This document shows positions 2,448 through 47,504 of a stretch of 64,000 bases of DNA, piece by piece. The position numbers were made by a program, and so were the translations under genes. The DNA comes from Nemertoderma westbladi (taxonomy: Eukaryota; Animalia; Xenacoelomorpha). The DNA lies in assembly GCA_032718475.1 (NCBI GenBank), contig JAUCBJ010000735.1, forward strand, positions 47,444-111,443, given 5' to 3'. A model generated the notes under the pieces. It saw nothing but the letters and a program-made list of their open reading frames with translations. It was not told where the DNA came from and did not search any database. Position 1 is the first letter of the stretch. Each line of letters starts with the position of its first letter.

Positions 2448-2635
2448 GTAAGTTTTGTTGTGAGCCTGAAATGTTAGCCATGAATCAGTGAGCGGTATTG
2501 GTTGTGTACTGCAGCTACCTGCTTTCGAAACATAGGCCTAGCCCTATTATTTTCAATTTCGAATTTTGCGTATCGATTGTAAAAGCTTTTGCGGAATTAG
2601 CTGGTTATTTTCCCCGCAAAGTACTCTGTATTTGG

Positions 2636-13000: not shown

Positions 13001-16000
13001 AACGTCAGTTGGGCTTCCCAGTCCCTCCATCGCTCAGCTAACTTTTCTGGGATGGGATTGTCCCATTCCAGTCCGGCTTGCCAAATGCTGCGGAGTATGA
13101 TCCTGGCATGTAGGATCACTGGACTAATGAAACACAATGGGTCATACAATCGACTCATGGTCGATAAGCAAGTCCTCTTAGTGAGAGGTCTAGTCTGGTC
13201 GTTGGACCTTACACGTACCCTAAAGTTGTCCGTGTTAGGGTCCCAACTAAGTCCTAATACTTTGGTCGTCGGCAGAGGTTCTAGGTCTAAGTCCAAGTCA
13301 CCTCCACTGCGATCCATCGGGTCAAATGAGTTCACCAGCTCGGGTTCGTTGGAAGCGAACTTCGTCAGGTGAAATCCGCCCTCGGCGAGACAATCCTGGA
13401 GTTGGTGTGCTACGGTTGTAGCGCGCTCCAAGGTGTCACAACTCTTGAGGCCGTCATCCACGTAGAAATCTCGTTCCACGGTCCGAACTACTTCTGGGTC
13501 AAATTGGTCTCGTCTGTCTAATGCGGTCTGCTTTAATGCGTACATGGTGCAGTTGGGGCTGTCCCTGGCTCCGAATACTCATACCTGCATTTGGTAAGTT
13601 TCTGGCGGAAGTTGTAAGTTTCCATCCGGATACCAAAGAAACCTCAAGCTGTCCCTGTCCCGCTCCAAAGCCTTAACCTGGTGAAACATGGCCTCTACGT
13701 CACAGGTGAAAGCCACTTTGCGTTGTCTAAAACGCATTAGGACTCCCATGAGGTAATTGTTCATATTCGGCCCGTCCATCAGTTCGCTATTCATAGACAT
13801 CCCTTGGTAAAGCGCGGCGCAGTCATTGACTACACGCACCTTGCCAGGTTTGTCCGGGTGTCGAACAAAATGATGTGGCAGGTAATATGTCTGGTCTGTG
13901 GTTACCTCGGGATTTAACATCCTAATGGCGTATCCCTTTTAGAGATACGTCTGAAGTTGTGCATTGTATTGCATATGGGCCGTCTCGTCTCGCAACAATC
14001 GCTGCCTTATTGATTTGAGTCGCCTCAAAGCAAGCGGGTAATTGTTAACGAGCTTAGGTTGTCCATTGCGCCACAACATACCAACCTCATAGTGGCCATT
14101 CGCGGTCTGGCGAATGGTATCTCTCATAATATTTAATGACCGTTTTTCCTGTTCTGACATAGCGGTCTCGTAACTACCGGGTTCTGCTGAGTCCTGTTCC
14201 AACCATTGAATGGTCCGTTCAGTCAGCAGTCGGTCAAGCGCTGCTTGCACTGCGCCATGGTCCTCGTCCACGTCTTCGTCCGCTGTGGTGGCTAGTGTCA
14301 ATGTGTCTGGTAGGCTCGCAAGCCTTCCGGTGTCACTAGTCGGCGTCGAATCGTCGTGCGGCGGTTTGACAACTTCTTGATCTATCGGTAGGCTCGCAAG
14401 CCTTCCAAGATCAACGACCGGTGTCGAAGCCTGGTGGGTGGGGTCAATGACCTTCGGATTTTTCGGTAGGCTCGCAAGCCTTCCAAAATCCTCGTTCATC
14501 GAGTCATCCATGGCAACAACCCTTTGGTCTTCAGTAGTCAATACAACCTGGTCTACTGCAAGTAGTTGTAAGTCAGAGGTCCGTATGGTCGTGTCCAGAT
14601 CGGTTACGTCAGTATCGGTGGCGTCTGCGTTTGCGACGCAAGTCTGTCGTAGTGCCGTCTGTACAATTGGACCACAGGAGTGTGAAGGAGAATTATCTAT
14701 CGTGTTAGTCAATAAACTACACGTACTCAAAACGTCGTCCTCCTGGTCACTTACCTCTAGTGAACGTATTGGTGCTCTAGTATACCAACCTATGGGAGTT
14801 CTACATGCGTAGGGGTTGCCCGCTGTAATAACAGATGGGCGTGTCTCCCATACCTGATGTAAGTTAAACTGGTCTGTCCCAATTAACATCGCAATGGAAC
14901 GATAATTAACAGGACATTCCGGTATTCCAAGGTGTCGGAAATACTTACGATCTTCCGGTGATTGCTCTGGCACAGGGCCGAGCAAGTTACTAAAGTCCTT
15001 CGTAGCTGCAAAGGTCAAATTTCTTACCGGAAGTAATGAGCGCTCCTCCTTGCTGTGTTCCGCTTTGGAAAGAAGAGTGTCTAAAGTTAGTTTTACTCTC
15101 GTCACAGGGATCGCTCTCTTACCATGCATGCTGCTTACAGTATACTGAGCAGTCTTACCTTGACTCATGTCCGTAACTACGTCGGCTACTTGTTCGTCGA
15201 CATAGCTATGTGATGACGCAGAGTCTAAGATGGCGTATATACGCTTGCTCCCTCGGGTTCCGGTAATCTTTATAGGAATCATGCTAAACCCTTTCAGTTG
15301 GTTCTGTGTGAGGAGCGTTATCGAACGCTGTTCCTCACCTGCATGCACGTAGAAAGTGTCGTCTTCCTCCTCGTTCTCGTCCGATGATCCTGACTGATCC
15401 ATACAGTCTGTATAAAAGGTACGGATCTCGCGCAGCGCATGCTCCTTGTAAAGCGCGTCGCATCTAGCCGCTTTATCTGGATGCTCTCGTCGAAAGCGTC
15501 TGGTCGGAGTATGACTGGTTGTGTGAAGCAACGCGTCATGGTTACGTCCACACAGAGAACATGTATCGTCGCTCGGGCAATCCTTCCGGACGTGTCCTGG
15601 CTTCATACATCTCCAACAGGAATCTAACGATCGAATTTGGAGTCTCCTTTCTTCAATCCCTAACTCCTTAAAAGCGCAACATCCACGAAGTTTATGTCCG
15701 CTGTAGTTTCTGCCGTTCTGTTCGCAGTACGAGAATCCCACAAAGTCCGCTGGCAACTGCTGTCGTGGCTGCGTGGTGCCGATAGGCATCAGAACTTTAG
15801 AAGTCTCAGTAGGGGTGGCGTAAGTAACGGCTTTCGCGTTCGTCGGAAGTGGTTTAGTCCGATTCGGCGCAGATATAGCTATCCCTTCCGCCGCGATATG
15901 GTGATCGGTATAGTTCGATCGAGTCTCGATCACGGCCTCCCGTGAAATCAGTTGATAGACATCGGTGAGTTTTAATAACCCTCCGGCCTCTTCACGCTGG

Positions 16001-18880
16001 TACTCGATGCGTCGCCATTCTCGTCGGAGTCGATGGTGAAGTCGACCGATTATTCGAATGAGAACCGTCGGTGCGTTAGCGTACTCGAGTTGTCCAATGG
16101 ATCGTAAAGTCCCTATAGCGTTCTTGATTTTGTCCGCGAGTCGTAAAAGGTCGATTGGTTTCGAAATGTTGCCTCCTCTGCAGAGGTCTTCGATAATGGA
16201 TTTAGCCATGGCGACGTTACCTCCGTAAATCGAATATAAACGGTCGTACGCCAACTCAAAGGCATCGGGAACACCAATAAAGGTTTCCACTAATCGTTTC
16301 GGCTCACCAGACAGAACTTGGAGCAAGTAATTAAACTTCTCCGTCGAGGTGAAAGCATACTTAGCGATCTGGGACTCTACGTAGTCTACCAGTGTGCGCC
16401 AGTGTTTCGCGTTGCCAGAGAACTTTGGCGGTTGCTGTGCCGGTAATCCGTGTCTAGCCGCGAATTTCGCAATCTCGCTAACTAAGTCCAACTGTCCGCG
16501 TCCCTGTTCGGCGGCGTCGTCCAGTCGCTCCCTTCCGCGCGTTGTTCGTCGGTAGGAATTATTAACGGGATCTTCTTCTCGATGTGTCGGAGTCCGTCTA
16601 GTCTCCTGTTCTCTCCTTGGTGGTCGATGTTGTCTAGGTTGTTCCAACTCCACGCTGGTTCGTGATCGATCCGACGGTTGCGCTTCGAGTCGTTCTTCGA
16701 GTTGAGCTATTCGGTCCGTCATCTCGGTGAACTGTTTGGCGCTGATCGTTTCCGCTGGTTTCAATGTGGGTTTCTGTTGGGGTGTTTCTCGAGGTGGATT
16801 GTCGATGTATGGATTTGTCGACCTCTCCTCTCGTTTGTAATCCTCCGCCGCTCCAGTACGGAATATTTCCCGTTCCGTCGACTCCGAGTCGCTGGATGAG
16901 TCGCTGTCGTCCGGATAAGGTGGCTGGCGGGTTTGTGTCCGGCGTATTATTCTTGGTCTCGTCCGTTGTGGTCCGGGATCTACGGCTCTCCATTGTTCGG
17001 TAGGCTCGCAAGCCTTCCACGAAGTCGTAGGTCTCGTTATGCGTTGTCCGATCCCGTGGGTACTACCCACATCCATCCTCCTCCGTTGTTCGGTAGGCTC
17101 GCAAGCCTTCCACGAAGTCGTAGGTTGCGTCGAACATTGTGTCAACGGTCGAGTGAAATAGTCGGGTTTCGTAGTCGGTCTATAAATAACTGGGTTCGCA
17201 CAGCACGTCACAGGTTTAACTTGTAATGGTTTACTCACCTGTTTAATGGTCATAAACGCAGGTTCCTCTCTTCCTACAAGTAGACTACGACTTACTGTAG
17301 GTGGACTAGTTATGTTACCTGCTAAAATTGGTGATGAAGTCGCCCTAGGTTGCGGTATTTCTGTCACAACAAACCTGTTGCCTTGCGTCGAACGCACAGG
17401 CGTTATTTCCTTAGGTTTCGTAACAAAGACCGGTTTTATCGAAGTCGCGGGTTTGAGCATAGGAATAACTTGGGGAAAACGTTTACAGTAATCCTCGACG
17501 AACTCCTCTCCTCGATCTATCGCTCCCACACTTCCTTCCTCGATTCGCTTCTGTATTCCGCGATATCGAGCTTCCATACGATCCAGGGCAGACAAGTCCT
17601 GTCCAGCTCGCGATCTTATAGATCTATCTCTCGCGTCGAGTTCAAGGTCCGCTTGCGCGTTTGCTGCCTCACGAGATCTACGATTCAATTCGAACTGTAG
17701 TTGCATCTCCCTTTCGCGTCGATCCGCTACTTGTTGTTGTGCCGCTAACTCCGCTTCCTGTATAGCTAAACGAGTGGCTATTTGTCGCGCTTCCAACTTG
17801 GCGCGAGCGTCGGATGCTGCTTTCTTCCGTGCTAATTTGTCGGCTGCCGCCGCTGCGGCTGCTTCTTGCGCTAAATCTTCCTCTAGTCTCCTCATCTCTG
17901 AGGATTCTAATTCTGCTTGCGCCTTGAGTTGCGCAATTTTTGTCTCATCTTCTCTATATTGTTTCTCTCCCTCGATGGCGATCTGTGCCATCTGGTGTTG
18001 CGCTTCTTCCTCGGCGACTTGTTGTCGGCGTGCAACCTCCTGTTGTTGTCGAGTAATCACAGACGCTGTCCTACTAACGTCGCCAACGTCGCTCCGCATG
18101 CTAACGAACGATCTATCCAGAGGTGGATGCTGGTAGGCTCGCGAGCCTTAGTGAGAACTTCCGTCGTCCCTCGCGGTTCGACTTCCGGTTCTTCGATCGG
18201 TACGCCGCATCTACGAAGAAAATTGGTGATCGTTTCCAACCTCCCGTCCAGGCAGTAGAGTTCTTCTTCCTCTTCGGGTTGTAACAACGCGTCCGAAACT
18301 GACTCACCTAGCAGTTGGTCAAACTGCTCCTGTTGAGCCAATCTTATCACCGACTTAAACTGGATAAGGCTTTCTCTCGCACTTACCAACTTGTCTATTA
18401 TCTTTACCTGAGTAAAGTTATCACCACGCAACTCTGCAAGTTCGTGTAAACCTTTAAGTTTATCTACGGAGCTATGCTCCGTAGGATAAGACTTTCTATC
18501 CTTACTTGTAAGGTGTAGAACTCGTATCTCAACATCGGGGCGGTTAACTCGCGTAAAACGCGAAAACCTTCTCCGAGGTTCCGAGTAATCTGGGCCATGT
18601 GTCCTCCTATACTCCTAATAACGTTCTCCTGGCTTCCAGTCGAACTTACCATGTCCGGTTCCCGCGATCTAGTCTGCGGGACGGTAAGGAAATCTTTGAT
18701 TCTGCCGTCGCCACGCGTTGCGGCTTCCGGTATTTCCGTTCGGGGTACCGGCGACGCAAGCGGTGTGACATCGGTGGAATCCCGGGTTCTCCTTCTCGGT
18801 TCGTCTACTGTCGATCTGTCCGGGTCGCACGAGTCATAGTCGGTAGGTGGGTATCTCGTCGAATGGGGTGTGTCACTCAT
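10052..18880 (-). pseudogene. Element B gag-pol polyprotein (BEL/Pao), disabled
   Basis: Gag (PPKFSG..EKFNYL; CWRCMKPGHVRKDC, CSLCGRNHDALLH), protease ILDSASSHSY, RT YLPHH..KVRVV..FYVDD, RNase H FSDAS..PRGEL, integrase H-H-C-C, GIDCFGP, CDQGTNF, GVWERL. In-frame stops at ~13940, ~13580, ~12593; frame changes near 18450, 18080, 10500. Confidence 0.95.
11900..12320 (-). repeat. Degenerate 12-bp coding repeat (xSPD/CPD tetrapeptides) between RNase H and integrase
   Basis: Translation PDITPDVSPDIRPD...SPDCSPDHSPDYSP. Confidence 0.85.
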
Positions 18881-19828
18881 GTCTTATTATATACGTCAAG
18901 TACGGGTAATAAAATGTCAAAGTGTCTGAATGTTGAAGTGTCAAACTTACCTTGTTATATATAGTATATATATACCCTAACCGGTACAAATAAATCAACA
19001 AGTCAGAATGTCGAAATGTCAAAATGTCGAAATGTACAAATGTCAAACTTACCTTGATATATATATATATCATTTATATACCCTAACCGGTACAAATAAA
19101 ACTAACAAAGTATATAATAAAATAAGTAATAATCTAGCCTACCGGCTAAATTTGTACGAATAAATGAGATAACGGTATACGTTACCAAAATATAGATCAA
19201 AAAGTACAAATAATAGGCAAAACAGCAATGTCTAACGGGAAAATAAGTACCAACAACACTACTAATAGACAGTGAAACCCACAAATTTTGAGTACTACTG
19301 TGCTTTTTTAAGTTTAAACGACGCGAGTCGTAAAACTTACGTTCCTTTGATCTTCCAGTCGTACAAATTCCCAAATACAAACCGGACGTGGGTCGTTCCT
19401 TTTTTTCGGCGGCGCGGACGAATTTATTGTCTCCCAAACTTTGCGAAAAGCGGTCTAATCCTCGAAGCGGTCCAGAAATGAGTCCTTGAGTCCTGAAAGG
19501 TCGAAGGTGAGAGTTTTACTTCTACGCTATGAAAAATCTTCCTAGGTACCGATACAAATTGGTCTTTAAACCCTATGTACCTTTTCAAGTACCGAAAGTA
19601 ACACCGCACACACACGGCGTAAAACAAAGTGCTACAAACTAACTGTTAGCTAGTCAAATATTAAATACGAAAGTACTAGCTACCCTAAAAGCCTACTGAA
19701 GCAGGGGACGTTCTAAATTACTAAATTTACTAACCTTAAATTTTAAATATCTCCTACTTTCAATAGCTAACAGATCTAAATAATACTATACACTACGGTA
19801 GAAATACTATATACTAATTTATATAAAA

Positions 19829-19838
19829 TACTTCTCAC
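19829..19838 (-). promoter_or_regulatory. Element B atypical PBS (GTGAGAAGTA), complementary to LTR site 21045-21054
   Basis: Immediately follows the 5' LTR end; no TGG; perfect 10-nt inverted match inside the LTR. Confidence 0.7.
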
Positions 19839-22070
19839 TGTAAGGTCCAGTAGTATACCGCTTACCGGATCCTAGTAACGATGTATCTTACCGTAAGATC
19901 TAGTAATGTATACGGGCTCGTACAGTATCTGACAACAAATCCCAGTCCAGGATATCTAAACAAACAGATACAATACACAAACGACTACTGGCGAGGAACA
20001 GAGCCTAGTGTCTATTCTATGTACGTGAGCGGGTCTAATGCCTACGAAACTAGACAAAAGGATACCTGTCCTCTAACCGGTGAGGCAGATGTACAGTTAC
20101 AGTAACAGACCAAACTCACGGGAAAACAATCCCCGCGCAGCGAATCCTAACTATTACTGACAGTCCTAAATACTGTAACTTGCCGCGGTGTGATTTATAT
20201 GGTTTATATACGAGCTAGTGGGTTAACAGACCTAGCGTAACAACACTGATTCAGTCCTAAATCAGTCGAAAGAGGGTCGTGCCTAATGTAACAATACAGC
20301 TGAACAGGAAACAACAGTTTAATAACGAAAATGAAATGCTCTCTCTTGCCGTAACTAAATATCAGATCCTAATTTACAAATACAGTTAAGTTCTACCTAA
20401 AGTAATATATAGTACGCTATAACTAGTAGAACTATAAGGGCGAATATGTTTTAGGGCGTGTGTGTGTGGGTGTGTTACAAATAAAACAATTTTATGTATC
20501 TCCTTTCACTAGGTTTTAGTGATTTTCTGACCGAAATGATACCGTGCGCTAGCTACTAAAATAAACTAGTCGCGTTTTGTAGAACTTTATACTCACAAAT
20601 GACGTCAAAGCTCTCTCCTTCCTATCCACAACTCAATGGGCAACCACGGTGTTAGTAACTACACCCGTGATCGGCACTAATACCAGATTCTGGTTGTAAG
20701 ATAAGAAATAGGGGTTAATCGCTACCGTACGTTAGCTGATCTGGTATACTAATTTAATTCTAGAACTTTGTTGCCGCGGTAGTTAGCAGCAATACCTATC
20801 AGTACGTGGCAAGGCGTGGTAGGATATTAATAAAACCTCCCTAGGCCAAGCAGTGTGCCGGTAGCAGAAATACTCCTTGCCTGATCAAATAACTAACTCC
20901 AGACAGGGGGGGGGGGGGTACTAATGTACGTTCTACAAAGCGAACCGGTACCAAACAGTCAGTACTACGAATCACTAAATTATGGAACATATGCTGTCCG
21001 TACCTATGTACTCGCGTACTGACGAATGGCAATAGTTCGCACCTGTGAGAAGTACAGGTTAACCCAGGGGTTCGCAGGACTGACAAAGGGGGGGGGGGGG
21101 GGTTCCTGTCTAAATATAATTATTTGATCCTAAATTTTGCGGCGTCCAGGACGGCGTCACGCTTACCTCTTACGGTGGGCAAGGGCGTCGAACAAAGTCT
21201 TACCTTTCTCACAAAGCGGGCGCTGCATGGCAAGTTGAGCATTTCGAAGGGCAAAGGGGGTGTGCGGTCAAATCCAAAGTGGGCGCTAGCATGTTGTGGA
21301 CATCTTTCCCCTGCGTTGCTGACGGCCTAACGGTCTAGGCTGCCATCTTCCCGATGTTTGGCTGTCCCAAAGTTGGACCAAAAGAAAACATGTTCAGGAA
21401 TTTGCAGTATATTTACAGTTTAGCAAAGGATTTATCAAACAGATTTAACAAAGTTTCAACAAGAAACCAAATAAACTAATAACAATGATATAAGAAGATA
21501 CTAGTGAAGTATAAGGTGTAAGGGTCAAAATGATAAGGTGATAACCGAAGGCAAACCGGCCTTTTTATACTAAATATCGCACATGGAGACCAAACAGAAT
21601 TTTCCACAGCTTCACATTTGAGCAATAAAGTGCTTTATGCCCTATGATTGGCCCAGCTCATCGTTCAACGCAATCCGGCCCTTACACTAATCTGGGACAT
21701 GGAATCCTAACAGAATTTTCCATAGCCTCACATTTGAGCAATAAGATATTTTATGCCCCATGATTGGCCTGGCTCATCGTTCGCTACGTTGTACGCTTCT
21801 CATTGGTCCACCAATTTGCACCAAATGAAAATAAATGGCCCCAAAATACAAATTTCCCGACTGGGATTCGAACTCGTAACCTATCTGTAATGTAACCAAC
21901 GCCTTAACCATCTGACCACTACGCCACGAGAGTACATAGGGGCTTTATGTGTACAAATATAAATAGGCAATATTACATTACTGTAACTTAATCAAAATGC
22001 GTCGGATTTTCGAAAGTTTTTACGTTAAAGTTAAACTACAAATGCTATCTTATAGTGAAATAATTCATCA
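19839..22070 (-). repeat. Element B 5' LTR (2232 bp)
   Basis: Direct repeat of 2636-4891. Contains an internal ~120-bp CCAAT-containing duplication (~21590-21785), and a TATA-like TATATTTA (~21112-21119) with Inr-like TCAGT (21079-21083) on the minus strand. Confidence 0.97.
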
Positions 22071-22075
22071 TTTGG

Positions 22076-23184
22076 TTTAACAGACATAAAAAGCCGTTTC
22101 CTTACTGTACCGGTGTTTTAGTGGACATAAAAAGCCATTTCTTCTGTATGTGTACTTTAGCGGACATAACTAGCGATTTTATGTCGCAATACGCTAAAAT
22201 CCTCTTGACACAGTGTAGTTATTATGACGACGGCTAACAGCTGATCTGTACACATGGAGCTTTTCCTTTGTCTCTTTGTTCGGACAACCAATCACAGCGA
22301 TTCTCCTGATATTTGTACAGAAACCTCCAGTAAATCGCGCAATGCATTACTGTTTATGTTTACATTTTTTCCTGATGCCAGAAGACCGGCTTTGGAATCT
22401 CTGTGTTTTCAGGCTTGAGCAAAACATTAGTAGGCTTGATCATAGAACGTATAACCGTTATCAAACAAACAATTCATACCTAATCAAACAAAACAATTAA
22501 AACACCGCATTTTTACTGCTATTTACTGTCGGTTATTAATTATATCAGTTGATGGAATATTATTATATTGGGATAATATCGATCAATAATCAGAAACCCC
22601 AATCTTCTTGATATACTGAAGGTTAGAGAGACCGGTTGCATATAACAATTGCGACTTACATTATATTGGTTTTGGAGTGAATCTAATGCTATTTCATAGG
22701 CACTACATGAGTCAGTGGTTGTTCTCTTTATATGTGACTAAAATTAGTGAAGGTCGGCAGATCGGTGTGCAGCATTGTGCGGTAGTGTGCATGATTGTGA
22801 CTGATAACGAAGCATCTCCTAAAGAATGCGCTTTATACGTGAATCCATAGCCATCCCGTTGTGTCTAGTGTAAGTCATAACTCTGTTTACATATTTAGAG
22901 CGCCACGTCCTAAAGGAACTGTTAATATTTCCCGAAAGTGAAAAATATTGGTCAGAGATTATATATTAACAATCAGTCGAATAATACAGTAGGCCTACAC
23001 CGCAATAAGGTCAAAGCTTCCGAATCCAGTCTCCCGGGTATATCCAGCGGGTGAATGGTCGCGCATAGACTGGCTTCGGCTAATGTAGTGTATCAAATAC
23101 TCGTCATAGGCTAAAGTCGATTTATAATCTAGAAGACATCTAAATTTGGCAGGTTAAACTGCTAAAGGTCTGAAAGTGCGAACA
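22076..23184 (+). repeat. Element A 5' LTR, distal part (proximal 58 bp at 2578-2635)
   Basis: Joining the two parts reproduces 46286-47356, which has a ~96-bp deletion between GTGT microhomologies. Confidence 0.95.
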
Positions 23185-23195
23185 ATAACGGTTAT
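23185..23195 (+). promoter_or_regulatory. Element A atypical PBS (ATAACGGTTAT), complementary to LTR site 22451-22461
   Basis: Abuts the LTR end; no TGG; reverse complement ATAACCGTTAT lies in the LTR. Confidence 0.75.
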
Positions 23196-23466
23196 TGCTT
23201 CTGTATTGCAACGTAGGCAATAAAGCTGAAGTACCGGTCAACCGGTACCTAGTAGGCCTGACTACCTAACCACCCGGACCGGTACTTACAGCAGTACAGG
23301 TACAGCAGTATTATTCGATTTGATAATTATAAACCGGTAGGCCTTAATATTGAATCAGGGAGGGCCCGCCCTGGTTCTTTATTGAGATTTTACTTATTTC
23401 TGTCAGTTTTATTTATTTGTAGGCCAATATTGAGCAGAAGGCGTGTAAGCCTGCTCAGATTGTACA

Positions 23467-24045
23467 GATAATTTGTAGGCTGGACTGTTGTCTGACTGTT
23501 GTTAAGTCTGAAGAGATTGCGGTGTGTGTAGAGTGTATGTCCGATAAATTACTAGTTAGGAACGTAGGGGCTTCCAGTGCTGTGAGGTAAATCCCCTCGA
23601 AAGAATAAGTCGTACTACTCGGTTAGAACGCATACTAACTAACCATTTCGGAGTCTGCATATACTGTAGTTTGTTTAGGCTTGATAGTAGTCTGTCAGCG
23701 TTTGGTCTGTATTTTGTATGTGTAGTCTGTACGGGTAGCGTAATATTTCTTATTTAGATAATTTGTAGGCTGGATTGTTGTCTGGCTGTTGTTAGGTCTG
23801 AAGAGATTGCGGTGTGTGTAGAGTGTATGTCCGATAAAGTACTAGTTAGGAACGTAGGGGCTTCCAGTGCTGTGAGGTAAATCCCCCTGAAAGAATAAGT
23901 CGTACTACTCGGTTAGAATGCATACTAACTAACCATTTCGGAGTCTGCATATACTGTAGTTTGTTTAGGCTTGATAGTAGTCTGCCAGTGTTTGGTCTGT
24001 ATTTTGTTTGAGTAGTCTGTACGCGTAGCATAATATTTATTATTC
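23467..24045 (+). repeat. ~290-bp tandem duplication in the A leader (equivalent in C at ~30016-30590)
   Basis: GATAATTTGTAGGCTGG... starts at 23467 and 23757. Confidence 0.9.
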
Positions 24046-25373
24046 AGAGTTTATGCGATTATTCGCAACATTCATATCCCCAAGTTTATTCCTACAGTAA
24101 TTGTGCTTGTTGTACATACCGTTATAGTTAAAATAACCCCGGTACTACATCAGGGCTGCTTGGCGTAGGTAAAGACTGGTGATTTTGTGCCCCGGTCACT
24201 CCAGCAGATACCGTGGTTCTTTTAGCTGTACAAGTATTTCTAACTGCTGATTATTTGTTGTATAAGTACTTGTACCTAATTTAGGGTTTAGTGTACAATA
24301 CTTTCCGAAGGTAATTAGTGTGTAGGCAGTATATTTGTGTTGTAAAGTGGTTAATAGGCACGTTGGTTCTGGTTGACCGCGGTAATTAACTTCTAGGTAG
24401 GAACACTCCGTGATACATAACGTAGTACTTATAGCGTTACGGCTATAAGTCGTCAGACGGTGGTATTTTTCCTATCTGGATAACGCAGTATATTTACTAC
24501 TGCTTTGTTATTTTCAAATACCGTAGTATCCTGTCTGTTTGTAATAACCAGATATTCTAACCCTTTGTTAGGCTGGTTTGTAGACTTCTTGTAAAATTAC
24601 CCTAAAAATTCGTACGTGTAATTTTTGTGTTTATTTAGAGATTGTAATCTCACCCCGAATTGTACGTAATTTGTAGTATTAAGTAACTTAGGCAAATTAG
24701 AATTATTTGTTTTAGTGTCCAACAAGTAGCACTTCACTGAGAGCATACAGCTTCTGTGCAGTGACTCCTTCCCAGAAATAATAACATTTATTTCAAATAT
24801 TGACAAAACCCATTATAAGGGTATATATATTATAAATCAACTCAAACCGATTTATAAATAGTAGGCCTGTCATACATCAACTAGGTCTTAATATCAGTTG
24901 GACTACTGCTTAAATAACGGTAATAAAGTAAGGTAAAGTAACCAAGTAACCCCTAAAATTCAGAAATTTAATTATTATAAAATAATTGACATACCGGTAT
25001 TTACAATAGGCTTATTATATTTATTTCAATAATTTTAGGCTGAAATTATACCGGTATTCTGTAATTAATTCTAGTCCATAATTATACTTATATATTATAA
25101 GTGTAAGCTGTATACCGGTATTCACGATAGGCCTATTATATATTTATATATATTTGTGCTGAAATTACCTACCGGTATTCTGTGACAAATCTAGTCTGTA
25201 ATAATGCATATATATATACTATAAGCATACCGGTATTCTAATATATTATATATATATCACGTTACACTGAGTAACAGTATCGGTAGTTAATTACTGGGCT
25301 AACAGTTGATACTGAATTACTAAACTTGCTTTAACTGTAATATAGCAGTAGGCATTCAACTGTACAAACAAAC

Positions 25374-28300
25374 ATGTCTGACACAAAGCAAAACCTGTCA
25401 GACAGTCTCTTAGATACAACCATCTGTGACCCAGACAGGAGTGTGGAACGTGTGAGACCGAAGTTCAATTCACCTCCTACTGTAAGAAAGATCATCCCTC
25501 CAGTAGTAGTATCAGACCCTAGGCTAGTCCAACACCGTAGGTCTATCATAGGCACTCGAGCTCAAGTCAAGCGAGACCAAGAAGCAGCGGAACAGCAGCA
25601 ACACTCGAGCCGAGAACTTATTTCTCAGCGGCCCGACAGCTCCAGTAGTGCGGATACTGTAGAGCTGACACCCGAGCGCGGAGCAAAGATGGCAGATGCG
25701 GTTTACTCGGATCCCCTTCTCATCCTTCCTGCAGCCGTACTCACTAGGGTATTGATTGCGGTGGAGGAACACCAGATTGATTGGGCGAGAAGTAAGCGAT
25801 CGACCAAGGATAGTTATGCGGGATACACAAGGGAAGAACTGAAGTCTATTGTCGAGTCGCAATGGAACTTCCCCGGACCCGGACTCCCGTCTGACTTATC
25901 GGAAGCTGCCTGGGAAGACATACACAGGATGGGAGTGACTAAAGAAACCAGCGATCCAGCTGTGTGGAAGAGGTCAGCAGCAGGATACGTACAGGGATTC
26001 TTCAGCTCTATGGAGCGATTAGAGGAACAACTGTTTCGACAACCCCAAGGACCTCAAGAGCAGGGAGAGCTGCTTTATCAAGTTAGAGAAAGAATTCTAA
26101 GAATCCGACTAATCTTATCGGCCTTTGAGGAGGCTTCGAAAAGAAGACAAGACACGTCGTTGCAAGTTGCTGTAAAGACTTGGTTTCAGCGGGTGAGTCT
26201 CAAAGTTCAAGGAACTGCCCCTTGGAAATCTCAGTTGGCTGAGCGCTCAACCCATGGAGAATCAACAGATGCTACCTTTTCCCAAGTGGAAAGTGAAGGG
26301 ACAGCAGAAAAACCGTATAAGAGGGATGCTATTGACATCTATCTGTCAGACTATCAACGATTTGTCGGTGATGAAGAGTTGAGGAGACGGCTGTCTGGAC
26401 TTAGCCCTAATAGTGAAGGAGCCAAGCTTGTGTTGGACGCAATCGATGCGGATATGATAGCTGCGAACCAAGCTAAATTTGATGAAAGCATCCGCATCGC
26501 TAAGGTTCAAGAAGAACAAGTAAAGAAAAAACGTATAGAAGACAGAAAGACAGCAGCAGCGGCAGTGGCAGAGGCAGAAGCGGAAAGAAAGGCAGCAGAA
26601 GTGGAAAAGAAAGCGGCAATGGCAGCGGCAGAGGTGGAAAGAAAGGCGGTAGAAGTGGAAAGAAAAGCGGCAGAGGCAGAAGCGGAAAGAAAAGCGGCCG
26701 AAGTGGAAAGAAAAGCGGCAGTGGCAGCGGCAGAAGCGGAAAGAAAAGCAGCAGATGCAGAAAGAAAAGCGGCAGTGGCAGAAGCAGAACGGAGGGCATC
26801 TGAAGAGACAACCCAACTAGAGTTGGAAAATCTTCAAGAGAGGCAAGACAACTTCAATAAACAGTTAACAGCTAGTAATATGCAGATGATGAATCGATCT
26901 ACTCCCAAAAGACAGGGATATACATCATCTGATGAAGGCGATACCACCGATCCTGAAGGCGGAGGAAATAGATCTCGTCTAAGCAGACGTAGAAGAATGT
27001 CCCACCGTCAGAAATTGCCTGATTTGCCCCCAGCTGTTAGAAGGCAACTAACTAACACAGGCTTAGGTAGTACAGAACCCACAGACCAAATAATTAAAAT
27101 AGAAAGACTCCCTACTATAGTAGATGAGCCTGAAATAATTAGGCCTGTTCTTGAAATCACCCCTTCGGTGATAGAGACACCTGTGCTCCCAGAACCTACC
27201 TCTAAATTCCCTTTGCACAGTACTAAACTACCTGTGCCCCACAAAACAACCCCTGAGACAGTTCCTGTCCTGGACTCCGAGCGAAATATCAATGATTTGT
27301 CGCCCGTTGTCTCTCGTCTACCCGCTACTACGTTGGCGGCTCCCGCTTCGGCGGTCGAGTGGGTGGATGAGGGGCGGCGGGGGATGAATCTCCTGCTCGG
27401 GCAGATGCAGGAGACTGTTCATCAGTTTAAAGGAACAGTAAGGGAAAGTAGGTTAGAGTTGCAAGAAGTGCAGCAGAGTATCGCATTAGAACGCGATAAA
27501 TTAGTAAATACACAAAAGGGTATACCACCACCCCCTGTAACAATGTGTCAACCTGTTAGGTCTGAAGTATTTCATGCGAAAGGTGTGGAGCCTACACGCA
27601 TCTATACTGCTAGTGAAGTGGAAACTCCTATAGTAAACCCTATTAAGGATAATTATAAACCTGTTGACAATGATATTCCATATAGACTTGATAATAATCC
27701 AAGAAATTTATATACCGATAACTCGATATTAAATAACACGAGTCTATAACAGTTTTACTGAAACAGTTTTACGCGTCAAATGGCTAGAACCGAAGCCCGT
27801 CAAGCGGTAAAGGTGGGAGAGATCGTCAAGTTCAATGGAGATGAGATGAAATGGTTACCTTTTAATGAATATTACAAAGATAACATACAGAACTCTGTGC
27901 TATCTAACGGAGAGAAACTTAGATTCCTCATCGAGTGCTTGGAAGGATCTCCCAAGTTAATGGCGTTAAAGTTTATTGGACATCCAGATGGATTAAGACA
28001 AGTTTGGGATACCCTAAACATCAGGTATGGTAAAAGGAATAACATAGCTAGGTATTTGTATGCAAAATTGGTAGCGCCCCGAAAATTCATTAACAGCGGG
28101 ATTATAGAGTTTTCCGATGAGATTCAGGAGATCTGTAGACAATTAGATTGGCTAGGTAAGTCTCATGAATATCAGAGTTCTATGGTTATTGGAGCCGTGG
28201 CCTCTACTTTACCTAAAGGTGGAGTAGGTACACGCTGGGATAAGAAAGTGTTATATATGATGGAACAACAACGACGAGACCCTACCATGGCTGATCTCAT

Positions 28301-28563
28301 GTCATTCTTAGATGGAGAAGTAAAATTACAGCTCCTAAAGCAGTCCAGAGAGAAGACACCGGAAAACAAGGTAAGTGAGAAACCCGTTTCTAGGAGAAAA
28401 GTAACACCAGTGTGTTATACCGACGACGGCGAAAGCCAGGCTTCTCAAGAAGAAGACAGCGGGAAAGACACTGAAAGATCTTATTATGTCAACAAAACGC
28501 CTAAAGACGTAAGTAAATTCAAGTCTCGAACCAATGACAGGAGAGAACAGGTAAGAAAAACTC
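25374..28563 (+). pseudogene. Element A gag, 5' part (disrupted near 27740, interrupted by C)
   Basis: Colinear with the intact ORF of C; KFNGD..EKLRFL BEL gag motif. A small replacement at ~27741-27765 introduces a stop. Confidence 0.9.
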
Positions 28564-29734
28564 TGTAAAAGCTTTTGCATCATTAACCGGTTATTATCCC
28601 TTAAAGTACTCTGTAGTTGGTTTGCCAGGCATAAAAGGGCCGTGTCCTTGCTGTACTGGTGTTTTAGAGGACATAAAAGTCATTTCTTATGTATTTGTAC
28701 TGTATTTGTACTTTAGAGGACATAATCCGCAATCTCGTGACGCGATAAGCTAGATAATCTTGAAAACAGTGTCGCTACCATGACGACGGCTAACAGCTGA
28801 TATTGCCACGTCGACGTTTCTTTGTTTCTTTGTTCTCTCGTTGTTCGGTTGACCAATCAGAGCGTTTGTTGTCTCTGTGTTGGAGGTGTATACAGAGGCT
28901 CAGTAGTTCAGTGTTATGTTTTTGCCCAGAGCCTAAGAACCGGCTTTTGGCACCTCCGTGTTTTCAGTTTTTAGTCTTACACTAGTAGGCTTAATTATAA
29001 GGACATATATCCGTTATCATAACATACCATACCTAATCAAACAACCTGTGCATACTTTTATATTGTTATACTGCTATTTACTGTCAGTTCTTCATAATAT
29101 GGTTGATGAATTATTATATTTGGAATAACGATAAATAACCCCGAAAACCCAATATTCTTGATATACCGAAGGTAGGAGAGAAAGGTTACATATAACGATT
29201 GTGACTTATGTTAAAGTGGTTTGAAGTGAATCTAATGTTATTTGATAGACCCTACATGATTCGGTCCGTGTTCCTTTTATATGTGACTAAAATCAGTGAA
29301 GATCGGCAGATTAGTGTGCAGTATTGTGCAGCATTGTGTATTAGTGAGACTGATAACGAAGCATTTCCTAAAGAATGCGCCATATATGTGAATTGTAACT
29401 AAGCCATATCGTTGTGAGTAGTTTAAGTCATAACTCTGTTTATATAGGTAGAGCGCCACGTCCTAAAGGAACTGTTAATATTCCCCGAAGGTGAATAATA
29501 TTGTCAGAGATTATATAATACTGTCAGTCGAATAATACATTAGGCTTACATAGCAATACGATTAAGCCGTCGAACCCAATCTCCCGGGTATATCCAGCGG
29601 GTGAATGATCGCGCACCGATTGGTTTCGACTAGTGTAGTGAATCAAATACTTGTCAGAGGCTAAAAGTGATTTATTATCTAGAAGACATCCTAATTTGGC
29701 GGGTAAAACTGCCAAAGGTCTGAAAGCGCGAACA

Positions 29735-29745
29735 ATAACGGATAT
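29735..29745 (+). promoter_or_regulatory. Element C atypical PBS (ATAACGGATAT), complementary to LTR site 29007-29017
   Basis: Reverse complement ATATCCGTTAT is present in both C LTRs (29007-29017, 40636-40646). Confidence 0.75.
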
Positions 29746-32024
29746 TGCTTCTGTATTCCAGTAGGCAATAAAGCTGAAGTACCGGCAACCGGTACCCAGT
29801 AGGCCTGACTACCTAACCACCCGGACCGGTACCTACAGCAGTACAGGTACAGCAGTATTATTCGATTTTGATAATTATATACCGGTAGGCCTTAATAATT
29901 AATCAGGGACTGCAGCCCTGGTTTTTTATTGAGATTTTTACTTATTTCTGTCAAGTTTTATTTGTTTGTAGGCCAGTATTGAACAGAAGGCGTGTAAGCC
30001 TGATCAGATTGTACAGACAATTTGTAGGCTGAGCTGTTGTCTGATTGCTGTTAAGTCTGAACGGATTGCAGTGTGTGTAGATCATCTGTCCGATAAAGAA
30101 CGGTTAGGAAGTAGGGGCAGCCAAAGCTGTAAGGTAAACCCCCAACTAAAGAATAAGTCGTACTACTGGGTTAGAACGCATACTACCTAATCATTTCGGA
30201 GTCTGCATGTCCTGTAGTTTATTTAGGCTTGAGAGTAGTCTGCCATCGTTTAGTCTGTACTTTGTTTGTGTAGTCTGTACAGGTAGCGTATAATATTTAT
30301 TTAGATAATTTGTAGGCTGGATAGTTGTCTGGCTGTTATTAGGTCTGAAGGATTGCAGTGTGTGTAGATCACCTGTCCGATAAAGAACGGTTAGGAAGTA
30401 GGGGCAGCCAAAGCTGTAAGGTAAACCCCCATCTAAAGAATAAGTCGTACTACTGGGTTAGAACGCATACTACCTAATCATTTCGGAGTCTGCATGTCCT
30501 GTAGTTTATTTAGGCTTGATAGTAGTCTGTCAGTATTTGGTCTGCATTTTGTTTGAGTAGTTTGTACGCGTAGCGTAATATTTATTATTCAGAGTTTATG
30601 CGATTATTCGCAACATTCATTCCCCAAGTTTGTTCCTACAATAATTGTGTTTGTTATACATACAGCTATAGTTAAACTAACCCCGGTACTACACGGGCTG
30701 CTTGGCGTAGGTAAAGACTGGTGATTTTGTGCACCGGTCACTCCAGCAGATGCCGTGGTTCTTTTAGCTGTTCAAGTATATTTAACTACTGATTATATGT
30801 TGTACAAGTACTCGTACCTAATTTAGGGTTTAGTGTACAGTGCTTTCCGAAAGTAATTAGTGTAGGCATTATATTTGTGTTGTAAAGTGGTTGATAGGCA
30901 CGTTCGATTAGCTCTATTAACTTCTAGGTAGGAACACTCCGTGATACATAACGTAGTACCTATAGCGATACGGCTATAGGTCGTCAGGCGGTGGTATTTT
31001 CCTATCTGGACAGCGCAGTGTATTTACTACTACTTATTATTTTCAAATACCGTAGTACCCTGTCCGTTGTAATAACCAGATTTCTAACCCTTTGTTAGGC
31101 TGGTTTGTAGACTTCTTGTAAAATTACCCTGAAAATTCGTATTTTGTGTTTTGTAAATTTTTGTGTTTATTTAGAGATTGTAATCTCAACCCGAATTGTA
31201 CGTAATTTGTAGTATTAAGTAACTTAAGTAAATTAGCATTATTTGTTTTAGTGTCCTATAAGTAACACTTCACTGAAAGCGCACCGCTTTGTGTAGTGAT
31301 TACTCCCCAGAAATAATAACATTTATTTCAACATTGACAAAACCCATTAAACGGGTATATATATATTATAAATCAACTCAAATGATTTATAAATAGTAGG
31401 CCTGCCATACAACAATTAGGTCTCAATATCAGTTGGACTACTGCTTAAATAACGGCAATAAAGTAAGTTAAGGTAACCAAGTAACCCTTAAAATTCAGAA
31501 ATTCAGTTATTTAAAATAATTGATATACCGGTATTTACAATAGGCTTATTATATTTATTTCTATAAATTTTAGGTTGAAATCATACCGGTATTCTGTAAT
31601 TAATTCTAGTTTGTAATTATACTTATATATATACACTATAAGTGTAAACTGCATACCGGTATTTACGATAGGCCTATTATCTTTATTTCTATAAATTTAG
31701 GCTGAAATTATACCGGTACTTGTAATTAATTCTAGTCCAGAATTATATATACTACAAACTGTAAGCTGTATACCGGTATTCCCGATAGGCCTATTATATA
31801 TTTATATATATTTGTGCTAAAATTATATACCGGTTTCTGTGAAAAACCTAGTCTGTAATAATACTTATATATACAATAAGCATACCGGTATACTAATATA
31901 TTATATATCACGCTACACTGAGTAGCAGTATCGGTAATTAATTACTAGGCTAGCAGTTAAGGCTAAATTACTAGACTTGCTTAGACTGTAATATAGCAGT
32001 AGGCATTCAACTGTGTAAACAAAC

Positions 32025-35000
32025 ATGTCTGATACTAAGCAGAACCTGTCAGACAGTTTATTAGATGTAACTATCTGCGACTCAGATAAGGGTGTAGAAT
32101 CGTCTACACCTAAGTTCAGTTCACCTCCCACTGTGAGGAAGGTCATCCCTCCAGTAGTAATAACAGAACCTAGGCTGGTCCAACATCGTAGGTCTATCAT
32201 AGGCACTCGAGCTCAGGTCAAGCGGGACCAAAAAGCAGCGGAACAGCAACCACCCGCGAGCCAAGAACTTATTTCTCAGCGGCCCGACAGCTCCAGTAGT
32301 GAAGATACTGTAGAACTGACACCCGAGCGCGGAGCAAGGATGACGGATGCGGTTTATTCGGATCCCCTTCTCATCCTTCCTGCAGCCGTACTCACTAGGC
32401 TATTGATCGCGGTGGAAGAACACCAGATCGATTGGGCGAGAAGTAAGCGCTCAACTAAAGATAGTTATGCGGGATACACAAAGGAAGAACTGAAATCTAT
32501 GGTCGAGTCGCAATGGAACTTCCCCGGACCCGGACTCCCGTTTGATTTATCAGAAGCTGCCTGGGAAGACATACACCGGATGGGAGTAGCCAAGGAAACC
32601 ATCGATCCAGCTGTGTGGAAGAGGTCCGCAGCCGGATACGCACAGGGATTCTTCAGCTCTATGGAGCGAGTAGAAAAACAACTGTTACAACAACCTCAAG
32701 GACCTCAAGAGCAGGGACAACTGCTTTATCAAGTTAGAGAAAGAATTCTGCGAATTAGGCTAATATTATCAGCCTTTGAAGAGGCTTCTAAAAGAAGACA
32801 AGACACGTCGTTGCAAGTTGCCGTAAAGACTTGGTTTCAACGGGTGAGTCGCCAGGTTCAAGGAACAGCTCAGTGGAAAGATCAGCTGGAGGAGCGCTCA
32901 ACCCATGGAGAATCAACAGACGCTACTTTTTCCCAAGTGGAAAGTGAAGCGACGGCAGAGAAACCGCATAAGAGGGATGCCATTGACATCTATCTGTCAG
33001 ACTATCAACGTTTTGTAGGAGATGAAGAGTTGAGGAGAAGGTTAGCGGGACTTAGTCCTAATAGTGAAGGAGCCCAGCGTGTGTTGGATGCAATTGATGT
33101 GGATAGGTTAGCGGCGAACCAAGCTAAATTCGATGAACAACTCCGCATCACTAGAGACCAAGAAGAAAAAGTAAGGAAAAAACGTATAGAAGACAGAAAG
33201 ATAGCAGCAGTGGCAGAGGCAGAAAGAAAAGCGACCTTGGCAGCGGCAGCAGCGGCAGCGGCAGAGGCAAAAGCGGCAGCGGTGGCGGAAGCAGAACGGA
33301 GAGCGGCTGAAGAGATCGCCCAACTGGAGTTGGAAAATCTTCAAGAGAAGCAAGACGACTTCAGTAAACAGTTAACAGCTAGTAATATGCAGATGATGAA
33401 TCGATCTACTCCCAAAAGACAGGGTTATACATCATCTGAGGAAGGCGATACCACCGACACTGAAGGCGGAGGAAATCGAGCTTGCCTAAGCAGACGTAAA
33501 AGAACATTCCACCGTCAGAAATTGCCTGATTTGCCTCCAGCTGTTAGAAGGCAACTAAATAACACCAACTTAGCGAGTACAGAACCCACAGAACAAATAA
33601 TTACAATAGAGAGACTCCCTACTATAGTAGATGAGCCTGAAATAATTAGGCCTGTTCCCGAAGCTACCCTTTCGGTCGTAGAGACACCTGTACTCCCTGA
33701 ACCTACCTCTCAATTCCCGTTGCACAGCACTAAGCTACCTGTGCCCAGCAGAACAGCCCATGAGACAGTTCATGCTCTGGACTCCGAGCGGAATATTCAT
33801 GATTTGTCGCCCGTTGTCCCTCGTCCGCCCGCTACAATGTTGGCGGATCCCGTTTCGGCGGTTGATTGGGTGGACGAGAGACGGCGGGGGATGGACATTC
33901 TCCTCGGAAAGATGGAGGAGAATCAAAGGCGCTCCTCCCAACAGGTCCGAGAGTTAGAAGGGACTGTTCAACAGTTAAAGGGAACCGTAAAGGAAAGTAG
34001 GTTAGAGTTGCAGGAAGTGCAGCAAAATATCGCGCTAGAACGCGATAAATTAGTAAATTTACAAAAGGGTATACCACCACCCCTTGTAACAATGTGTCAA
34101 CCTGTTAGGTCTGAAGTATCTCATGCGCAAGGTGTGGAGCCTACACGCATCTATACTGCTAGCGAAGTAGAAACTCCTATAGTGAACCCTATTAAGGGTA
34201 ATTATAGACCTGTTGATAATGATATTCCCTATAGACCGGATCATAATCCGAGAAATTTATATACCGATAACTCGATATTAAATAACACGATGGCCCAAGA
34301 AAGTTTTACGCGTCAAATGGCTAGAACCGAAGCCCGGCAAGCGGTAAAAGTGGGAGAGATCGTCAAGTTCAATGGAGATGAGATGAAATGGTTACCTTTT
34401 AATGAATATTACAAAGATAACATACAGAACTCTGTCCTATCTAATGGAGAGAAACTAAGATTCCTCATCGAGTGCTTGGAAGGATCTCCCAAGTTAATGG
34501 CGTTAAAGTTTATTGGACATCCAGACGGATTAAGACAAGTTTGGGATACACTAAACATCAGGTATGGTAATAGGAATAACATAGCTGGGTATTTGTATGC
34601 AAAGTTGGTAGCGCCCCGAAAGTTTATTAGCAGCGGAATTATAGAGTTTTCCGATGAGATGCAGGAGATCTGTAGACAATTAGATTGGCTAGGTAAGTCT
34701 CATGAGTATCAGAATGCTATGGTTATTAGAGCAGTGGCTTCTACTTTACCGAAGGGTGGAGTAGGTACACGCTGGGATAAGAAAGTGTTATATATGATGG
34801 AACAACAACGACGAGACCCTACCATGGCTGATCTCATGTCATTCTTAGATGGAGAAGTGAAATTACAGCTCCTAAGGCAGTCCAGAGAGAAGACACTGGA
34901 AAACAAGGTAAGTGAGAAACCCGTTTCTAGGAGAAGGGTAATACCAGTGTGTTATACAGACGACAGCAAAAGCCAGACTTCTCAAGGAGAGGATAGCGGG

Positions 35001-36941: not shown

Positions 36942-37484
36942 CAACGGCTGGAGTGGGTGTGTGACCATATTATTTTATTTTGTATTTGTTTTATTTTTAT
37001 ATTTATGTATGTATTATTATGTAATTTTATTTTAATCGTTTTATTTAATTTTATTTAGTAGTATGGTTATTTAGTGATTATTTAGTAGATTAGTGCAATA
37101 TATTAGTGTTAATTACGTAATTACTTATATTATATTTAGTGTGACGGTGAGAAACAAGTGTTTTTCTCTTTCCTTACTGTCCGTATTACATTACAAATAC
37201 GTAACTACAGTAAGATGAAATGTCCGTACTTATTAAAGTACAATAAAGCTCCTACTATACTTAAGTATTATTGGTAGGCAGAGTATTAGGAATGCAAAGT
37301 TCAGATCCTCGTGTCTCGGCTAAACCAAGCTCTGGGTAGACCTTGGAAACGACTTGCCTCTTCACACTGACATTGCTTCGTGCGATATTGCTCTCATACC
37401 GTATATTAAATAATACATATAGTAGCGTGATGTCCCTTTAACAGTAGCGTATAACGCAAAATAAATCTGTTAAACCCTTTGACC

Positions 37485-37770
37485 ATCTGCAATTCTAGTC
37501 GATTAAGATATCGCGGCACCCACCGATATACTTGAAAGACAAATTTTAGAATCAGTGGTTAACGTCCCCAGACAAGTTCTGGAATAAATTGGTGCCCATC
37601 TCAAATATTAATTATTTAATATTTGCAAATCTAATAAATCAAAATCTGTAAAATTCAGATCCTTCAACAATTCTAGTCAATTAAGATATCGTAGCATTTA
37701 CCGATATTCTTAAAAGGACAATTTTCATAGAATTAAGGATCTTGTGTCCCCAGACATGTTCTAGACTCAA
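37485..37770 (+). repeat. ~180-bp-period imperfect duplication in the 3' internal region of C (A equivalent ~43765-44030)
   Basis: AATTCTAGTC.ATTAAGATATCG...GTCCCCAGACA.GTTCT occurs twice. Confidence 0.8.
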
Positions 37771-38591
37771 AATATGTCCATTTAATTATCAAATAATAAA
37801 ATTTCAGGGAATAAATTTAAATTCATGCCTTTTAATGAATTTAATAAATTGCCATTTTTACGCAATTTATAACATTCCCAAAATTCCATTAATTAATAGA
37901 TCAAGGGAGCGGAGATTTATCTTATTATGCGTATGAGTGTACGAAAGTCTCCCAAACATGGTCAATAGCCGATAAAATTCATAAAGTCATGTATCAAACA
38001 GGACATTGACTATTAAAGAATTACTATTAAATAACATCCCAGATCTGTATGCATGGGAATTACTCTAATTCTACCGCTAGCTTTGCATAATGTCACCATG
38101 GCAACAACCACGCTAGAATTAGAATTGAGTTAAAAGAACAATAGAAAGCTTGTCCCATTGAATAGCATAGGGAATAAATAGTGCACTGCTAGTATCCAAG
38201 GATACATAATAATACAGTGACATTCTGGAAGGCATTGACTAACGGACAAATGGCCCGAATGTGCGTAGTTGTGACCAGTTGTGTGGTATTTGTGAGTTTA
38301 TAGGTGAATGTTACTGCTAAAGTGTGTTTACAGTAGCTAGTCGCAATCGTGAAAGTAACCTAACTCTCCAAGGAAAACCTGAAGTACATCTAAGCCTTTG
38401 GGACGGACAGTGGAGTGACTTGTGCCGGTTGTCGTTGTCGTTGTGCGGCTACGTCGTTGGCGAAAGTACAGCGGCGACGGCACATCGGCGCTGAGGATCT
38501 CGTACTGTCCGGGGGTTGATTGGGGTAGGCAGCGACGCCCGCTCGCCTAAATATAAACTCATTATAATATGGATAAATTTATATAGCAGAT

Positions 38592-47356: not shown

Positions 47357-47504
47357 TCGATAGTGGTTACCATGGCAGCCAGGCTAAATAGATGTTCAAA
47401 TTTTTAAAATAATGATTTAAAGCGATAAGATTAACATTATCATTATTTATGTCTTGGGACCAACCCCTACCCCCACTATATGACTTATTCTGCATCCGAA
47501 TTAC

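Follow-up and report, generated by a model that had tools for sequence, protein, structure and literature searches.

Our analysis concerns three nested retrotransposons with long terminal repeats (LTRs), A, B and C, of the BEL/Pao superfamily in a 64,000-nucleotide (nt) stretch of the genome of Nemertoderma westbladi (contig JAUCBJ010000735.1 of assembly GCA_032718475.1, positions 47,444 to 111,443; hereafter the window, whose own numbering is used for all three elements). In each of them the first internal bases, at the primer-binding site (PBS) position, form the exact reverse complement of one single site within the element's own LTR, over 11 nt in A and C and 10 nt in B. This feature is real, and the interpretation that the elements prime themselves is well supported by comparative sequence evidence. 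We consider it quite likely that a segment of the LTR primes minus-strand DNA in cis in all three elements, replacing a tRNA.

Complementarity between the LTR and the first internal bases

Each match begins at the first base past the terminal CA of the LTR (offset 0), and its partner, present in both LTRs of the element, is located 723 (A), 717 (C) or 1206 (B) nt before the LTR end (Table 1). The complement of each PBS is found whole only in the element's own LTR, and cross matches between the elements span 0–7 nt. A tRNA-type PBS was judged within the window sequence alone, by the trinucleotide TGG near the LTR end; TGG does not occur in the first 30 internal bases of A, B or C. The original prediction had named the six sites, the lack of a TGG-type PBS, a duplex adjoining the terminal CA, a compensatory change in both partners between A and C, and an unrelated pair in B. 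All of these were confirmed when the reverse complements were rechecked.

Of 20,000 dinucleotide shuffles per LTR, 9 (A), 17 (C) and 32 (B) contained the PBS match. A wider test, which admitted offsets of 0–2 and spliced matches, gave 0 (A), 4 (C) and 6 (B) of 1,000 shuffles. Among 3,000 leader positions per element, LTR complements of at least 10 nt numbered 8 in A, 6 in C and 4 in B, the PBS included, and the match at offset 0 was the longest or joint longest in each element.

A and C belong to one family (LTR plus leader 77% identical), and their duplexes are separated by one compensated pair, at primer position 4. Hence, the window offers two independent cases plus one compensated change, and not three cases. 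The PBS of A is a near-palindrome, and only C tells a reverse complement (11 of 11 bases) from a direct repeat (longest direct prefix 6). Of the independent self-priming BEL/Pao lineage that had been proposed from three elements, the core, LTR-derived and tRNA-independent priming, is supported by the sequences and appears to extend to relatives in other assemblies.

These relatives came from a profile scan that yielded seven BEL loci in records of metagenome-assembled genomes (MAGs). The LTR-PBS junction was tested in four of them; left out were L004 (no LTR-PBS junction), L008 (1.6 kb) and L010 (no LTR pair). In three of the four testable relatives, L005, L006 and L007, with 37–41% identity, the PBS matched a predicted splice junction inside the LTR. 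L005 and L006 have an 11-nt match to a predicted GT-AG junction in their own LTR, one base past the terminal CA, with compensated changes on both sides of the duplex between the two loci, and L007 has a match of 12 nt. Such junction matches arose in 2 (L005), 0 (L006) and 0 (L007) of 1,000 shuffles each. TGG is absent from the first six internal bases of all four. In the window elements splicing is not needed, since a spliced extension of the duplex is absent from A and C and amounts to 5 nt in B.

Part of the window is present in six of the seven public sequence runs listed, none of which is on record as RNA; X6 may be an RNA run. Four runs (including X1, X3, X4 and X6) were compared, all as contigs. 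Between 28935 and 29110 of C, no substitution at a level of at least 1% was listed inside 29007-29017 in the public contigs. The contigs of X4 and X6 match C through 29018 without mismatch and then diverge. Directly behind the primer and one further base, the summed depth drops from 186,525 to 51,133 in X1 and to 0 in X4 and X6, and this drop after 29018 was counted in favour of self-priming. A loose end in X6 represents a sister family with three differences from C in its first 11 internal bases, unlike a site that is reset by a fixed tRNA.

Predicted RNA structure around the putative primer site and a proposed route of priming

We surveyed every Watson-Crick helix of at least 8 bp that is common to A and C in the LTR plus leader (1,358 columns). 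Only four such helices were found, three of them with the primer site as a partner and one around the PBS. The first is the primer-PBS helix itself, with 11 bp and one compensated pair. The second, likewise of 11 bp, joins the LTR to the leader around the LTR end and the PBS; its core is invariant and wobble pairs extend it. The other two, of 8 bp each, pair the primer region with a mid-LTR segment, and one of them carries two compensated pairs. Two compensated pairs in an 8-bp helix, one in an 11-bp helix, or two helices of 11 bp came up in none of 901 column-block shuffles.

The primer site of A and C can pair either in the primer-PBS helix or in the mid-LTR helices, so that its two partners exclude each other, and both of them compensate the change at primer position 4. 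This covarying mid-LTR competitor was absent from the original prediction and is new here, as is the predicted LTR-leader stem. For B, no significant competing helix was found and no LTR-leader stem comparable to that of A and C was established; an 8-bp upstream partner of the B site (21213-21206) was rejected as lying within chance expectation. In the 3' LTR of A, a 96-nt deletion at 47033-47036, between short direct matches, leaves neither half of the competing partner in place.

Exact pairing, its register at the LTR end, the compensated A/C pair, the covarying second partner and the absence of a tRNA-type PBS can all be read directly from the window. The proposed route of self-priming is as follows. 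RNA would be transcribed from upstream of the primer site, which would then leave its mid-LTR partner and pair with the PBS enclosed by the predicted LTR-leader stem. Cleavage at the duplex's 3' end, made by the RNase H of the reverse transcriptase (RT) by analogy with Tf1, would free a 3'-OH adjoining the terminal CA. From there RT would copy 717–1206 nt back to the cut (strong-stop), followed by strand transfer. In the reverse transcription of LTR elements, plus-strand synthesis copies the primer; it would thus write the self-primer into the new PBS and automatically mirror primer mutations. Hence, with a self-primer the PBS would follow changes in the LTR; with a host primer, the PBS would be reset. 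A and C, which are without RT, would borrow it from an autonomous relative.

On a slight balance, the primer is probably internal to the transcript and not its first 11 bases. The original prediction had placed the transcript start at or within ~30 nt of the primer site, as in Tf1, and indirect motif evidence leans against this. The best TATA motif of B (TATAAAAAG at 21569) is 515 nt upstream, within what may be a captured repeat. CCAAT motifs lie 163 nt (A) and 154 nt (C) upstream of the site, and the covarying helix of A and C uses 4 nt upstream of the site, although it could also form in the 3' LTR copy. For the window elements, the TATA, CCAAT and helix evidence amounts to motif-level hints. 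In L005 and L006, TATAAA motifs are found 218–243 nt before the predicted donor; with TATAAA about 200 nt ahead of the predicted junction, the primer would be internal there as well.

Several observations weigh against self-priming in cis. Nested folding of the natural 0.9–1.4 kb stretch gave the primer-PBS pairs a probability of 0.0, and forcing them cost 11–15 kcal/mol. This type of model cannot represent a pseudoknot or chaperoning by proteins, yet its outcome lends the duplex no support. The poor score comes from competition with the mid-LTR helix together with a pseudoknot with the LTR-leader stem. The local openness of primer and PBS is at the 73rd–86th percentile in A and C; in B both are poorly accessible (6th and 11th percentile). 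Contigs alone were compared, so that the duplex, the cut and the transcript ends are predictions from sequence. Single contigs in X3 and X4 carry a C-to-T change at primer position 6. An LTR site had been predicted beforehand for the sister family in X6; it did not turn up in the listed loose ends (22 of 60), where one two-contig cell shared the first six bases only. Among the relatives, L005 and L006 come from one assembly, L007 has an uncertain LTR end that is not CA and needed a wider offset range, and L009 failed the preset junction test (395 of 1,000 shuffles). By eye, L009 has an 11-nt junction match five bases from a possible LTR end. In L007 (4679-4698) and L009 (141-156), an internal loop and a further 4–8 bp past the junction helix reach the first internal base, a post hoc observation at uncertain LTR ends.

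Alternative explanations for the complementarity

An element-derived primer might act in trans, as a short LTR transcript, a small RNA or an excised intron whose 3' end is cut or trimmed to the duplex. This would agree with the low standing of the cis duplex in nested folding. Moreover, inheritance of the intron in the relatives requires that the 3' LTR copy keep it unspliced; a separate spliced RNA would make this possible. The B site ends two bases ahead of an AG, downstream of two AG/GTAAG motifs; no AG follows the A or C site. The 1118-aa open reading frame (ORF) of B looks exonuclease-like by eye, and DEDDy ORFs are described in rotifer LTR elements in the available text of one study (PMC5408684). 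However, nothing supported the DEDDy exonuclease reading: Pfam found weak zinc knuckles only, the Protein Data Bank (PDB) gave one chance match and the Atlas none, residues 150-720 are without homologs, and the structure model has a predicted local distance difference test (pLDDT) score of 33. A freely acting primer is also at odds with the fit of each PBS to its own LTR and not to that of its sister, although A-like and C-like copies coexist in the same public runs. We consider a primer in trans unlikely.

The LTR of B contains, between 21205 and 21043 on the minus strand, two donor-like AG/GTAAG motifs (21205, 21168) and two acceptor-like ones (a poly-C tract plus TTTGTCAG at 21087, and the primer site plus AG). 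An intron just upstream of or over the primer is possible from these motifs. Back-splicing to a circle, prompted by the GT past the LTR end of B and the AG past its site, was rejected, as A and C lack both.

Alternatively, the pairing may be a regulatory RNA switch, in packaging, dimerisation, translation or polyadenylation, while another RNA primes. The two mutually exclusive partners of the A/C site, with two compensated pairs in the mid-LTR one, are what a switch would show. A conserved hairpin also occupies the PBS position of the fungal GalEa elements, its role being given as not known in the part of the paper available (PMC5445492). Yet a switch leaves unexplained why the helix starts at the first base past CA in unrelated sequences (A/C and B; +1 in L005 and L006), why the pairing is purely Watson-Crick, and why its length of ~11 nt resembles that of the Tf1 primer. 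In addition, no alternative PBS is visible. We regard a purely regulatory pairing as decidedly unlikely.

Priming by a host tRNA fragment or another host small RNA, with an incidental LTR complement, has a precedent in the half-tRNA priming of Ty1/copia lineages, as stated in the accessible part of a review of such elements (PMC6317226). A host RNA would restore the PBS at every round, yet A, C and the X6 sister family have different PBSs. In each element the PBS also follows the LTR site in both LTRs, and the shuffle tests make the LTR match improbable by chance. A host primer is therefore very improbable. A tRNA primer encoded by the element itself was rejected as well: ARAGORN found 0 tRNA genes in the window, Rfam gave two sub-threshold chance matches in 19500-30200, and the tRNA-like stretch in the B LTR ends in a sequence other than that of the primer.

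Chance or an assembly artefact, for which the other 10–11 nt LTR complements in the leaders could be cited, is scarcely credible and is largely refuted by the shuffle and helix tests, given the position at offset 0 in two unrelated families, the covariation, and the X4 and X6 contigs that match C through the site without mismatch.

Relationship to known elements and anatomy of the window

By their proteins, A, B and C are BEL/Pao elements. The gag domain DUF1759 was detected in all three (A, E=4.5e-12; B, 4.8e-10; C, 4.1e-10). B has, in addition, a pol region with PF05380 (Peptidase_A17, E=5e-40), a YVDD motif upstream and an integrase zinc domain downstream, in the order protease, RT, RNase H, integrase, and its top homologs all contain PF05380. 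No RT or RNase H match was found in A or C, which were placed in BEL/Pao by gag, by the polypurine tract (PPT) and by ORF similarity to B. The in-frame loss of RT plus RNase H is common to A and C (41353-43203; 32019-36938), yet by its look the family is abundant and has moved recently (C LTRs 0.5% diverged), and an autonomous partner of it must exist elsewhere.

According to the profile of the International Committee on Taxonomy of Viruses (ICTV), which calls BEL/Pao replication 'poorly understood', these elements have a PBS of 18 nt that complements the 3' end of tRNA-Arg or tRNA-Gly, with LTRs of 0.2–1.2 kb and genomes of 4.2–10 kb (PMC8742986). The window elements resemble this description of Belpaoviridae in their DUF1759 Gag, Peptidase_A17, domain order and PPT, and in paired LTRs (0.5–1.2% diverged) flanked by target-site duplications (TSDs). 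They differ in that, with TGG absent from the first 30 internal nt, no tRNA-Arg or tRNA-Gly type PBS was seen, and in that B is 19.4 kb long, has LTRs of 2.2 kb and contains two additional ORFs.

In a quick tree of 44 rows, which did not include named reference elements of the Sinbad/Sailor, Suzu and Dan subclades, B grouped with aquatic relatives (fish, echinoderm, tunicate, mollusc, crustacean) and one tick sequence. This group was split from insect and spider rows with a Shimodaira-Hasegawa-like approximate likelihood ratio (SH-aLRT) support of 99, under a midpoint root and on a long branch. It is conceivable, albeit somewhat doubtful, that a broad aquatic BEL/Pao branch gave up tRNAs as primers and uses one cut out of the interior of its own LTR transcript, controlled by the covarying switch helix in A and C and by host splicing in the relatives. 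If this is true, a regulated internal primer would be a third independent origin of self-priming among the LTR superfamilies.

The closest likeness is to Tf1, in which pairing with the PBS involves the first 11 bases and RNase H cleaves after base 11, ahead of base 12, as set out in the available parts of three papers (PMC7175516, PMC4600332, PMC5341516); the first of these also supplies the precedent for cut and primer length (PMC7175516). As far as the accessible literature describes them, Tf1 and Tf2 of Schizosaccharomyces pombe, Tj1 of S. japonicus and the Tf1/sushi and Tcn1 groups are likewise without a tRNA PBS, and an 11-nt PBS next to the 5' LTR complements their own LTR RNA. The same arrangement is seen here, with 11 (A), 10 (B) and 11 (C) nt at offset 0. 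The lineages differ, since the Tf1/sushi elements are Ty3/gypsy chromoviruses, whereas the proteins of A, B and C are of BEL/Pao type. Other differences from Tf1 are the loop of 717–1206 nt, the covarying competitor in A and C, and the splice-junction form in relatives, all of them known here from sequence only. In the Tf1/sushi group a supporting RNA structure surrounds the PBS; in A and C an LTR-leader stem is predicted there, but its 11-bp core is invariant, and no comparable stem was established for B. By analogy, priming in A, B and C would work like that of Tf1, in elements outside the Tf1 group.

Outside Tf1/sushi, self-priming has been predicted for Tcn1 and for the plant Ty1/copia TAR lineage, Houba and Osr-1, in the available text of a review (PMC6317226). 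In the latter three, as in our elements, the prediction comes from PBS-LTR complementarity. Those are plant copia elements, whereas the BEL/Pao case would add a third LTR superfamily, in animals. Fungal GalEa (Ty1/copia) also has a non-tRNA sequence at the PBS position. In contrast to our covarying partner in the LTR, the partner there is an internal sequence close by, no U5 complement having been found by the authors, according to the portion of the paper available (PMC5445492).

Full-text literature searches found no report of BEL/Pao self-priming; most subscription papers, Repbase Reports and supplements were outside their scope, so that an earlier mention is possible. The main text of three BEL/Pao surveys, in the parts available, mentions neither PBS nor tRNA (PMC554778, PMC3118150, PMC6238403), and the accessible text of five further papers contains no BEL/Pao self-priming (PMC8220671, PMC3286476, PMC3601003, PMC5445492, PMC5408684).

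In animals, BEL/Pao ranks among the LTR superfamilies of greatest abundance. If self-priming is true, the reference definition of BEL/Pao as tRNA-primed needs revision, and tRNA-free priming arose in all three main LTR retrotransposon superfamilies. Annotation tools that demand a tRNA PBS would miss or misjudge such elements, and the elements would evade control by PBS-directed tRNA fragments. The natural pair A and C, with exact coordinates of primer, PBS and competing helix, makes the idea directly testable.

Self-comparison and boundary checks resolved the window into the three nested elements, B being located within the 5' LTR of A and C within its gag. LTR boundaries were set by the LTR pairs, by 5-bp TSDs (TCGAT, AACTC, CCAAA) and by the common PPT end GGAGCGG, found in each element; all LTRs have TG...CA ends. 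The LTR pairs diverge by 1.18% in A (12 substitutions in 1013 aligned nt), 1.16% in B (26 in 2232 aligned nt) and 0.51% in C (6 in 1171 nt).

Table 1. Positions in the window of elements A, B and C, their LTRs, coding regions and putative priming features.
Feature	Position	Strand	Remarks
Element A	2578-47356	+	TSD TCGAT at 2573-2577 and 47357-47361
A 5' LTR, first piece	2578-2635	+	split by B insertion
A 5' LTR, second piece	22076-23184	+	ends ...GAACA
A putative self-primer ATAACCGTTAT	22451-22461	+	3' LTR copy 46719-46729
A mid-LTR competing partner	22802-22840	+	22802-22809 with 22456-22463; 22833-22840 with 22447-22454; deleted in A 3' LTR
A predicted LTR-leader stem	22977-23318	+	22977-22987 with 23308-23318; encloses LTR end and PBS
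A PBS position ATAACGGTTAT	23185-23195	+	exact reverse complement of 22451-22461
A 3' LTR	46286-47356	+	96-nt internal deletion; PPT ends 46285
Element B	22070 to 2636	-	19,435 nt; TSD CCAAA at 2631-2635 and 22071-22075
B 5' LTR	19839-22070	-	2232 nt
B putative self-primer TACTTCTCAC	21045-21054	-	3' LTR copy 3856-3847
B PBS position GTGAGAAGTA	19829-19838	-	19838-19829 reverse complement of 21054-21045
B gag-pol	10507-18147	-	single frame with in-frame stops; DUF1759, YVDD motif, Peptidase_A17, integrase zinc-binding domain
B two extra ORFs	5297-9344	-	279 aa and 1118 aa
B 3' LTR	2636-4891	-	2256 nt
Element C	28564-41363	+	12,800 nt; TSD AACTC at 28559-28563 and 41364-41368
C 5' LTR	28564-29734	+	
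C putative self-primer ATATCCGTTAT	29007-29017	+	3' LTR copy 40636-40646
C mid-LTR competing partner	29351-29389	+	29351-29358 with 29012-29019; 29382-29389 with 29003-29010; two compensated pairs relative to A
C predicted LTR-leader stem	29528-29865	+	29528-29538 with 29855-29865
C PBS position ATAACGGATAT	29735-29745	+	reverse complement of 29007-29017; compensated relative to A
C 1640-aa ORF	32019-36938	+	gag (DUF1759), protease-like region, integrase-proximal remnant
C 3' LTR	40193-41363	+	

The extra Cys/His-containing ORFs of B (8508-9344, minus strand) and C (38921-39718, plus strand) are weakly similar (tblastn E=9e-5) and have no Pfam match; this weak similarity would fit an accessory gene common to the lineage. 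The 1118-aa ORF of B (5297-8650, minus strand) has weak CCHC knuckles (Pfam E=0.0016) and, by eye, an exonuclease-like stretch.

In the B LTR at 21860-21925 (minus strand), and in its 3' LTR copy, a tRNA-like A-box (21918) and B-box (21873) can be recognised by eye, followed by three CCAAT motifs and the TATA motif at 21569. ARAGORN and Rfam make no call on this tRNA-like stretch. The summed contig depth of 21560-22055 is several-fold above the rest of the B LTR in run X4, and the region suggests a captured repeat resembling a short interspersed nuclear element.

L004-L007, L009 and L010 are BEL/Pao elements, several of them near full length, in contigs filed under bacterial MAGs, where they are likely contamination from host animals. 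A family-specific 19-nt pattern gave two metagenome matches and one viral match, all unrelated short matches, and protein scans of viral contigs and plasmids found no relatives. Elsewhere in the window, an 839-aa RVT_1 ORF (49791-52307), likely of a non-LTR element, contains 15-bp tandem repeats. A 21-bp array occupies 59613-60121, and a 34-bp satellite of 95 copies extends from 60759 to 64000 and runs past the window end.

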